The notes under the pieces are model-generated. The model searched no databases, was not told where the DNA came from, and saw only the letters and a program-made list of their open reading frames with translations. A program made the translations under genes and the position numbers. Positions 1,721-4,201 of a stretch of 11,700 nt of DNA are shown one piece after another. Each line of letters starts with the position of its first letter. The stretch's first letter is position 1. Source of the stretch: a virus (Duplodnaviria; Heunggongvirae; Uroviricota; Caudoviricetes); IMG/VR virus record IMGVR_UViG_2657244940_000002, positions 1 through 11,700 of that record; one strand, 5' to 3'.

Positions 1721-4201
1721 TTAAAAATCAGCCTGACTCGGGATCAGTTTTTGTATCGTAGCTGTAACGTATTTTGCCTGGTGACGGGCGTCATCCAGTG
1801 CATTGTGGCGCACGCCTTCGAATGGAATAACGGTTCTGGCATCAAAGTCGATTGTTTTTCCCAGCTCAACGATTGTGCGTACATCGCGATCGTTGTGGTA
1901 GCGCCACGGGCAGGGGATGTCCAGACGTTCGTATGAGGTGCGCAAAATTGCGTTATCGAAAGTCGCATCATTACCCCATACCTGAACGAATTTTTCATCT
2001 GAGTATTCGTTGATGAACTCCCGAAACTGCGAAAGGGCATCCTTCAGTTTTACCTGGTCTGTTAAAATGGCAGCTCTGGCTTCACTGGACTGCTTCAGCC
2101 ACCATTCGATGGTTCCACCGTCAGGAACAGCCCCTGTATTCATTGCGTCAGTCAGACTGATAACGATATAAAATACTGGCCCGATTTCCCCTGTTTGTGG
2201 GTCGAAGAAAACCGCACCAATAACCACGATGGGCGCATTGGTGTTGGTTCCCATTGTTTCAAGGTCGATCATCAAGTGGTACCACACTCTGCTGGTGGAT
2301 GTGATAACGTGATGACCGTTCACCGCAATTAAGGGATCTGCCGTCTCGCCAGTTTCATTATCGCTGGCGTGGTCCTGAGCGCTGCCAGCATTCTCCTTGT
2401 GTGGATGTTCAGCGCCTTCCATTTCCTCCGGATCATTTTCCTGAACTTCAACCTGATTCTCTTCATTGAATGTTTCCTGGTATGTTGCGTCGCCCATCAC
2501 CGCGCCACAATCAGGGCAGTTGCCGCCGCCGGTCTGACCGCAGGCGGTGCAGATCTTTTCCGGTTCCTGTTGCACTACTGGTTCAGGTTGTTTCGTTTCT
2601 GGCTCATTTTGTAACGCATTTGGGCTGTTTTGTTCCGCTTTCTGGCCGTTCTGTTCCGTTTCTTGCTGGTTCTGGTTCACAGAATCGCGGGTTTCCATCC
2701 CCTTCACCCATTTCGGATCATTCGGATCGCTAATTCCTGCAACAAATTCACCACGTGATACTGCAAGCAGTTCATCGGCGTCAGGCTGGCTGATATTGGC
2801 TGCCTGCATAATGTTGTTTACTTCGTCAGCGGTAACTTTTACCGGCCCTGGTTGTGCGGTCGTGTCAGATGCACCAGTATTTTGTTGTGAACCTGAGTAT
2901 GTACTGTTTTTGCGGACGAAATATTCTTCTTTCGTGATTTCAGTAGCCCCGGCAGCCAGTGCCTTATCCAGACCAGAAAGTTTGTTTGCGCGACCGTATT
3001 TTTCGCCATCCTTGTCGGTGAAGAGGAAGTAGAACGGCCCCTCACGCTCTACAGATGGTTCGACTTCCACTTTGCATTCGGTTTTTTCGTTGTCCGGAAT
3101 TGCCGTTTCCACTGCATCAGTTTCTGGTACTGGCGACGAGAGAGTATCAGTTGCGATCTGATTTGTTCCTTCATCTTCAAACACGCCCTTTGTAGTCAGG
3201 TATTCAGTAATGTATTTGTTCAGTGCCACAGGGTCTTTGTGAATGTCGATCGGACGCTCACGGACAAGGCCAAAAATAGTCTGGCGGTCGTAGCGAAGGG
3301 CATCAGGCTGTTTGCGCATTGATGCTGAGATACGCTTCCAGTCTTCGCGGTCGTTGTTGATAACTTCATTTTTTGCCCAGCGATGGATGCTGCCGTCAAT
3401 GTTTCCGGCATCAATGTCACCAGGCCACAGAGCGTAGGCCAGTTCATCATCCAGTGTTTTCCATGTCTGCTTATATTCGCGACGAATGACTGCAGTGACA
3501 GGGGAGATATTTTCTGCTGAGTTTTCAGTGTGCTGTCGGTTGACTCTGGCGCGGGCGAGATCAACAGCAGACGTGTATTTTCCGGTTTCCTTGCGTTCAC
3601 CTTCGCGACGTTTTTTCCAGATGCGCATCTCTGCCTGAATTTCGGGCCATTTAGCTCCAGGCTTACATTTATGCTTAACCCACCCGATGGCATGCAACTT
3701 AAGTTCTGGATACATGGCGTTAACTTCTGGCATTTTCATCAACGCTTCAACGATATGTCCGTCGAATGTTGCCATGTCTTCCTGCAACAGTTCCTGTGCA
3801 CTAATCACCATATCAACGGTGATGTTTTCACATGTGTCGAACTTAACCATGACAGCGTTCTGTACTTCAGGGGCCAGCTTGTCAAAAGTGACGTTCATCG
3901 GATCTGATTCAGTCTCAACCGGGACAAAGGAAGCTGACTCCTCATCCCAGCGGTTTTCCTGCATATATTCAGCATCCCAGGAATCGAGGGCAGGGCGGGG
4001 TATACCGGGTTTATCCTCGCAAACAAGAAATTTATAAGCGCAGTCCTGAGCAGCCGGATAATGTTCCAGGAATTGCCAGTGAAATTTTGCGCGGGCGCGA
4101 CGTTCATCACCGGCTTCAATGGCAGTGGCTACAGCGACTGCACCTTCTTCCTTTATTGCCTGTTCGTCCGGAATGGCGGCGCAAATAAAGACTTTACTCA
4201 T
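1721..4201 (-). CDS. Large phage exonuclease with C-terminal DEDDh (DnaQ-like) 3'-5' exonuclease domain
   Basis: 826-aa ORF with GAGG about 11 nt upstream of the ATG. C-terminal ~190 aa (nt 1724-2284) carry the three DEDDh motifs: MIDLETMG (Exo I), WGNDATFDN (Exo II), [11 protein letters not shown] (Exo III). Central Cx2C-x11-Cx2C zinc ribbon ([16 protein letters not shown], nt ~2506-2551) flanked by acidic Q/E/P-rich linkers. It occupies the exo/recE slot of lambdoid prophages. Confidence 0.85.
   Translation of the reverse strand: [826 protein letters not shown]

Follow-up and report, generated by a model that had tools for sequence, protein, structure and literature searches.

Which nuclease occupies the place of RecE in a lambdoid prophage when no annealing protein stands beside it, and what could it serve for? 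The question is raised by an 11,700-nucleotide stretch of viral DNA (IMG/VR record IMGVR_UViG_2657244940_000002, positions 1 to 11,700; hereafter, the window), which is an Escherichia coli lambdoid prophage with Qin/Rac-type immunity. On its minus strand, positions 1721-4201 encode a protein of 826 amino acids (aa). An earlier examination of the letters, which we call the sequence-only reading, had delimited this open reading frame (ORF), placed it where lambdoid phages carry exo/bet or recE/recT, and proposed that it ends in a DnaQ-like DEDDh exonuclease and not in a PD-(D/E)xK nuclease. PGAP draws the ORF with identical coordinates, and synteny with the Rac-SA53 prophage confirms its position. 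We show here that the protein is a mosaic, in which a DEDDh domain related to T4 DexA is joined to an N-terminal scaffold of the RecE type.

The nature of the nuclease is given by the C-terminal domain, which matches the Pfam family PF16473 (Rv2179c-like) over aa 642-814 with an E-value of 4.7e-67 and 225.6 bits for a cutoff of 27, from profile position 2 to 175 of 177; RNase_T comes as a weak second match. The domain carries the complete catalytic set, i.e., D646 and E648 (DxE of Exo I), D749 (Exo II), and H799 and D804 (Hx4D of Exo III). Four of them (D646, E648, H799, and D804) do not vary among 39 diverse sequences aligned, the fifth, D749, is found in at least 90%, and nearly all E. coli homologues retain the five DEDDh residues. 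The AlphaFold2 (AF2) model of residues 625-826 (predicted local distance difference test, pLDDT, 88.1; predicted template modelling score, pTM, 0.84) adopts the DnaQ-like fold that had been expected from the motifs. Its best PDB match by Foldseek is T4 DexA (8KEL; E 9.5e-11, TM score 0.74), followed by REXO2, Orn (oligoribonuclease), and RNase T, with a Foldseek probability of 1.00 for all of them including DexA. By sequence, DexA (8KEL/8KEN) is the sole PDB match (phmmer E 2.6e-7). Rv2179c of Mycobacterium tuberculosis, a stand-alone bacterial exoribonuclease on which PF16473 was founded, is not found in the top 50 Foldseek PDB matches of the model. Since DexA itself scores 79.9 bits against PF16473, this family includes a well-studied 3'-5' DNA exonuclease besides the RNase that gave it its name. 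Hence, by its profile match, its catalytic residues, and its DnaQ-like RNase H fold, the 826-aa protein truly belongs to PF16473 and to the DEDDh superfamily, and its polarity is predicted from the family to be 3'-5'. The relationship with DexA has its limits. Both are phage-encoded and share the DEDDh catalytic residues, but DexA is a stand-alone protein of 227 aa from a virulent phage, with extra loops and 24-29% identity to the present domain, whereas the 826-aa protein adds a RecE-type N-terminal extension of 640 aa.

The protein is not a RecE, even though it shares a non-catalytic middle region with it. RecE possesses a PD-(D/E)xK catalytic domain of 5'-3' polarity and is accompanied by recT, whereas the 826-aa protein has a DEDDh domain and no recT. 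Indeed, the DUF3799/PDDEXK model matches the C-terminus of RecE and finds nothing in the 826-aa protein, and tblastn of the RecE C-terminal nuclease against the window gives no match. The NCBIfam equivalog model of RecE (PRK09709) is matched only in part, over model positions 438-603, with 283 bits for a cutoff of 1269. The likeness to Rac RecE consists of the same genomic slot, the same scaffold family, a weak similarity in one N-terminal domain (see below), and above all a segment, aa 474-624, which is made of a conserved 18-residue motif, a Q/E/N/P-rich linker, a zinc ribbon, and an acidic linker. This segment is 72% identical over 151 aa to residues 471-614 of the Rac-SA53 RecE (E 3e-66); the sequence-only reading had tentatively likened to the RecE N-terminal region a stretch which begins at residue 478, and this resemblance is real. 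At the nucleotide level, the homology between the window and recE (blastn, 83%) covers 2334-2755 and ends there, around codon 622, i.e., at the boundary of the nuclease domain.

The zinc ribbon, C551-x2-C554-x7-C562-x2-C565 by direct reading of the sequence, is identical in RecE, and its cysteines are kept in 116-118 of 129 aligned homologues, the remainder being mostly gaps. It had been announced with a spacer of 11 residues between the two CxxC pairs; the ribbon is there, but the spacer is of seven. The acidic and Q/E/P-rich linkers were rightly described: 30 of the 50 residues from 501 to 550 are Q, P, E, or N, and residues 551-600 contain 12 D/E and no K/R. The nuclease domain is tethered by a flexible acidic linker of about 60 aa, where the C-terminal model opens with pLDDT values under 50.

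Upstream of the segment shared with RecE, AF2 modelling with 66 diverse relatives yields three confident domains, N1, N2, and N3, with disordered linkers between them (Table 1). N2 is present in most representatives of every architecture class of the family and gives a weak BLASTP match to residues 295-393 of RecE (E 6e-5). The N-terminal ~630 aa had been called unassigned. This is what an older Pfam copy returns, with no match in the N-terminal 640 residues, but the first part is in fact covered by PF27430 (YdfE_N) and PF27432 (YdfE_C) in the precomputed Pfam annotation of homologues, where Rac RecE has a PF06630 domain instead. A search for structural relatives of the N-terminal domains in PDB and BFVD returned no informative match.

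These two Pfam names lead to K-12. In its Qin prophage, the pseudogene ydfE (b1577, positions 5079-5999 of the extracted locus) is 94% identical to the 826-aa protein over aa 1-256 and lies in the same place after dicB-ydfD. An IS2E element interrupts it, and the part from residue 257 onwards, nuclease included, is absent. Judged by sequence and position, the 826-aa gene is the full-length form of ydfE. Because K-12 ydfE amounts to the first 256 codons, the definition of YdfE_N and YdfE_C rests on a piece of what is a larger nuclease. We also considered that the gene of the window might be a pseudogene or in decay, which is ruled out by its intact ORF, its conserved catalytic residues, and a ratio of non-synonymous to synonymous substitution rates (dN/dS) well below 1 in all folded domains.

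The scaffold behaves as a module. When residues 1-470 were searched exhaustively against 1.84 billion cluster representatives, only 190 clusters were recovered, and the scaffold is therefore narrowly distributed. The long members of the family display the same N1, N2, and N3 modules and at least four alternative C-terminal modules, i.e., the DEDDh domain of the 826-aa protein (~9 representatives, phrog_2082), the RecE PD-(D/E)xK nuclease (~12, phrog_607), and two unassigned modules, one P0251-like, or class C (~21, phrog_2489/7838), and the other P0245-like (~11, phrog_26058). That the same scaffold carries the DEDDh or the RecE nuclease in different representatives supports a module swap. The P0251-like module, the commonest of the unassigned ones, gives a weak match to Pfam Rad52_Rad22 (E 0.032), and in one contig a Sipho_Gp157 gene and an integrase come after the gene of a P0251-like protein. 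The candidacy of the module as a Rad52-like annealase, suggested by this match and by a likeness in motifs, is not claimed, a PDB profile search and hhalign against P22 Erf both being negative.

The substitution rates tell how these modules were assembled. Compared with mEp460, the synonymous rate (dS) is about 0.1 in N1-N3 and 1.17 in the DEDDh domain; compared with TUM9812, the pattern is the reverse; and compared with strain M1, N1-N3 have reached saturation and the linker stands at 0.23. Within one gene pair, dS thus varies about 10-fold between modules. Over four homologues, dN/dS ranges from 0.07 to 0.28 in N1 and from 0.04 to 0.20 in N3, and from 0.04 to 0.28 over N1, N3, and DEDDh taken together. 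For N2 it is 0.12-0.36, the value of 0.36 being obtained with the most divergent homologue. The acidic linker, on the other hand, is near neutral, with 0.86-0.90 against three of the four homologues. Every folded domain of the 826-aa protein is under purifying selection, and the mosaic dS pattern, taken with dN/dS, therefore argues for exchange of modules at the linkers together with selection on every folded part.

The nuclease also exists without the scaffold. Stand-alone prophage 3'-5' exonucleases of 183-193 aa from Salmonella, Klebsiella, and Citrobacter are 57-64% identical to the C-terminal domain (a range given by the non-Escherichia members of the 39-sequence alignment) and keep the catalytic residues. 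Like the 826-aa gene, stand-alone genes of 189-190 aa in a Salmonella prophage (P0088; region 4703-6570 of the extracted locus) and in phiSTEC1575-Stx2k (gp04; 3495-4067 of the extracted locus) are the last before xis-int, but they are devoid of the RecE-type scaffold and follow different upstream genes, of a YfdP/YfdQ-type early region. One of the two immediately follows a PF04447 dATP/dGTP pyrophosphohydrolase-like gene, and the other has a 5'-deoxynucleotidase in its neighbourhood; these neighbours hint at a link between the stand-alone DEDDh genes and nucleotide metabolism.

We then come to the partner. The sequence-only reading had seen no RecT-, Bet-, or Erf-like ORF before xis, and had seen there a gap of 69 bp with a hairpin; both observations hold. 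The gap contains no ORF of at least 40 aa, the overlapping-frame ORFs of the 826-aa gene give no PHROG match, and Pfam and PHROG searches on the window ORFs tested reveal no family of single-strand annealing proteins (SSAP). Neither the window nor the whole mEp460 genome gives a significant match when probed by six-frame tblastn with RecT, Red-beta, Erf, lambda Exo, Gam, and the RecE nuclease; on Rac, the positive control worked. In mEp460 (45.9 kb), a viable relative, no SSAP is found by annotation or by Pfam on the larger unassigned early genes. In every context inspected, the exonuclease is directly followed by xis/int, even when the integration module differs, and 1288 genomes cover at least 80% of a query that runs from the nuclease domain across the gap into xis. 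Hence, the arrangement departs from SynExo systems of the RecET, Red, or Erf type: no cognate SSAP lies beside the exonuclease in the window or in mEp460, and instead of a PD-(D/E)xK domain for 5'-3' resection, the sole nuclease domain recognised belongs to the DEDDh superfamily, whose enzymes act 3'-5', the polarity being here predicted. Yersinia P840, a phage further removed, encodes a "DNA recombinase" upstream of its stand-alone DEDDh gene, at a distance of four genes; an annealase may therefore accompany the nuclease in some phages, but not in general.

The stem-loop of the gap has a GC-rich stem of 9-11 bp with a folding free energy of -20.7 kcal/mol (z = -2.1; 5 of 200 shuffles fold as well). 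It was rejected as a terminator, having no T-run and being absent from the calls of a terminator scan. Expression of xis-int could be subject to processing or retroregulation at this site.

On this basis, we propose with moderate confidence that the 826-aa protein is a mosaic RecE-scaffold protein that trims or degrades DNA ends during phage development in the manner of DexA, the scaffold giving localisation. An exchange at the flexible linker (around aa 622-625) would have replaced the PD-(D/E)xK 5'-3' nuclease of RecE with a self-contained DEDDh module of the T4 DexA/Rv2179c family. In K-12, the dicB promoter drives a dicB-ydfD-ydfE transcript that is repressed by DicA (PMC11430063). Because of this repression and because a sequence scan found no promoter-like site before the gene here, the protein is probably made after derepression or induction, from a DicA/CI-repressed transcript of the same type. 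The DEDDh domain, on its acidic tether, would remove nucleotides from free 3'-OH ends by a two-metal mechanism; the substrate would most likely be DNA, by analogy with DexA. N2, N3, and the zinc-ribbon segment may supply the same targeting or partner contacts as in RecE. Since a 3'-5' exonuclease leaves 5' tails and since no annealase is found here, the protein would not be a single-strand-annealing recombinase of the RecET or Red type.

Several points weigh against this proposal. We infer the polarity, the substrate (DNA or RNA), and the role of the protein alike. PF16473 takes its name from an exoribonuclease; the structural matches that rank next after DexA are Orn, RNase T, and REXO2; and the identity with DexA is low. 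The targeting role of the scaffold is a guess, because no informative structural relative was found for the N-terminal domains. The search for SSAP covered the RecT, Red-beta, and Erf families and Pfam, and an annealase of an unrecognised family could have passed through it. Finally, intact copies in many defective prophages could equally indicate a benefit for the host, e.g., defence.

A bolder extension, which we consider rather unlikely, is that the N-terminal scaffold of RecE is a general phage platform delivering interchangeable C-terminal effectors to DNA ends, and that the DEDDh form represents an undescribed pathway of opposite polarity, independent of annealases. If true, such a pathway could destroy 3' tails and so block RecA/RecBCD-dependent processing or defence by the host, or exclude competing phages, and it would provide a first experimental handle on the N-terminal 560-600 residues of RecE. 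RecET is a workhorse of recombineering, and the large N-terminal region of RecE, of unknown function, nevertheless enhances linear-linear recombination (PMC11611040). The present gene shows this region to be a portable scaffold, which evolution has combined, with no annealase, with a nuclease of opposite polarity and with two or more further modules, and the comparison of these natural chimeras could reveal what the scaffold does.

Defence of the lysogen is the first of the other explanations. The protein would be a prophage exclusion or defence nuclease, the DEDDh domain attacking incoming modified DNA, like EcD/HREX, or the 3' ends of RNA phages, like TONDO, and the N-terminus playing an auxiliary or sensing role. 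EcD, an E. coli homologue of DexA, degraded the 5-hydroxymethylcytosine (5hmC)-containing genome of T4 in vitro and, expressed from a plasmid, protected against T4 (PMC12153337); this recent case of T4 restriction makes a defence role worth considering. TONDOs, which were chosen as homologues of ISG20, are prophage DEDDh exonucleases likewise paired with auxiliary domains, and act against MS2 and Qbeta (PMC13344964). Both systems resemble the 826-aa protein in being DEDDh exonucleases of bacteria or prophages. The purifying selection on the gene points in the same direction, as does its retention in intact form in 3526 of 5426 complete genomes of E. coli, often within decayed prophages. On the contrary, the gene belongs to a repressor-controlled early-left operon (PMC11430063) and has no promoter-like site of its own, and the K-12 copy is a pseudogene. 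EcD is moreover a different family member, outside the 120 closest relatives of the present domain. Its sequence begins with MIDTET according to the cloning primer; starting from the cloning primers, no exact match to EcD (HAK9828821.1) was found in genome or metagenome contigs, the reverse primer being probably in part non-native. Recognition of 5hmC by HREX relies on a conserved Trp (W152 of DexA) and on an acidic residue, D169 (PMC12153337). W152, which DexA needs for 5hmC DNA, aligns pairwise with H769 of the 826-aa protein, and the position varies (Y/H/T/W) among fused homologues; for D169 the alignment gives no confident counterpart. PADLOC v2.0 finds only its generic CRISPR-associated DEDDh model (E 3e-5, 22.7 bits), and no defence component is recognised. 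We hold this explanation to be unlikely.

A true recombination function in replacement of RecE is, in our estimation, quite unlikely. The nuclease would cooperate with host RecA/RecFOR, RecQ/RecJ, or SSB, or with an unrecognised annealing activity located in its own N-terminus or in a small neighbour gene. The recE slot and the N2, N3, conserved motif, and zinc ribbon held in common with RecE-type members are in line with it. Efficient linear-linear recombination by full-length RecE depends on its N-terminal part (PMC11611040), and among the sister scaffold proteins with other C-terminal modules, one gives the weak Rad52/22 match reported above (E 0.032). The 5' tails expected from a 3'-5' exonuclease and the lack of a detected annealase speak on the other side. 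An exoribonuclease trimming or degrading the 3' ends of host or phage RNA during lytic growth, for host takeover or RNA processing, is suggested by the Rv2179c founder in the description of PF16473, by the structural neighbours Orn, RNase T, and REXO2, which come after DexA, and by the PGAP name "3'-5' exoribonuclease domain-containing protein" sometimes given, but is very unlikely, as the DNA exonuclease DexA is the nearest relative for which both a solved structure and an activity are known, and as the scaffold that bears the domain otherwise carries a nuclease of DNA recombination. The preferred reading thus stays that of a DexA-like enzyme acting on DNA ends.

This gene is neither rare nor unnoticed. 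The gene type is present in ~65% of complete E. coli genomes, many of the intact copies lying in decayed or defective prophages, and the DEDDh module was found by tblastn in 1222 of 50,697 phage records. RefSeq names the product "3'-5' exonuclease". Many phage records (PV340562, LR597641, ON470583, and others) label the DEDDh gene "exodeoxyribonuclease VIII", i.e., RecE, because the shared N-terminal and linker sequence has propagated this name. The label misstates the type of nuclease and wrongly implies a recombination system of the RecET type. In the literature on Rv2179c, PF16473, RecE and DEDDh in prophages, ydfE, and DexA in prophages, we found no functional study of the 826-aa protein, which is a catalogued (PHROG, RefSeq) but uncharacterised mosaic of known kinds and not a new kind.

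The 826-aa gene is 100% identical in E. coli AST205 (NZ_AP043614; PGAP product "3'-5' exonuclease"), and the window shares 88-91% identity across large portions with the viable phages PhiR42_1, HannyBb, mEp460, and Tritos. A GAGG 11 nt 5' of the start codon makes a good ribosome-binding site. On the minus strand, the order is int, xis, the 826-aa gene, ydfD-like, dicB, ydfC, ydfB, ydfA, and a CI/DicA-like repressor, followed by a rightward block of cro/YdaT/O-like/DnaC-like replication genes, the O-like and DnaC-like genes being named from PGAP annotation only. Compared with Rac-SA53, whose order is int-xis-[ydaC-ralR-recT]-recE-racC-kilR, the window reads int-xis-exo-ydfD-like-dicB, and recT, ralR, and ydaC are missing from it. 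The coordinates are collected in Table 1.

Table 1. Coordinates of the 826-aa gene, the parts of its product, and the adjoining genes in the window.
Feature	Position	Strand	Evidence and remarks
Tyrosine integrase	85..1380	-	Pfam Arm-DNA-bind_2 and Phage_integrase
Excisionase (DUF1233), directly downstream of the 826-aa gene	1400..1651	-	Pfam E 1.6e-31; PGAP xisR
69-bp gap, exonuclease stop to xis start	1652..1720	-	Stem-loop ~1679-1708
826-aa gene	1721..4201	-	ATG start; ORF call; PGAP coordinates identical; full-length match to phrog_2082
Predicted DEDDh 3'-5' exonuclease domain, aa 642-814	1760..2278	-	Pfam PF16473 (Rv2179c/DexA family)
Acidic flexible linker, aa 581-640	2282..2461	-	
RecE-homologous segment, aa 474-624	2330..2782	-	
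Zinc ribbon, C551 to C565	2507..2551	-	Direct sequence reading; identical motif in RecE
N3 domain, aa 385-435, small beta-beta-alpha	2897..3049	-	pLDDT >90; common to RecE-type and other family members
N2 domain, aa 245-345, helical	3167..3469	-	pLDDT >90; module most widely common to the family, including RecE
N1 domain, aa 1-220, alpha/beta and helical	3542..4201	-	pLDDT mostly >90; YdfE_N and YdfE_C
ydfD-like DUF1482 gene, upstream, same operon	4282-4485	-	Pfam DUF1482; PGAP coordinates
dicB, upstream, same operon	4482-4670	-	Pfam DicB; PGAP coordinates

Some neighbouring features deserve mention. The dicF small RNA gene of the K-12 Qin prophage, which lies there between ydfC and dicB, was searched for as a candidate and rejected: no Rfam match is found anywhere in the window, and K-12 dicF gives no real alignment. 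The dicB-ydfC interval of the window (4671-5890) contains an ORF of 135 aa (5461-5868, minus strand) matching phrog_1363. In mEp460, a gene of 449 aa lies on the opposite strand of the nin region (33822-35171, minus strand); it has no Pfam match and could be a moron or a defence gene. The rightward operon of the window encodes a DUF4406 protein (9943-10248, plus strand) and a DUF977/Ren-like exclusion protein (9530-9946, plus strand), the former matching a PHROG of nucleoside 2-deoxyribosyltransferase-like proteins with an E-value of 1.2e-48.

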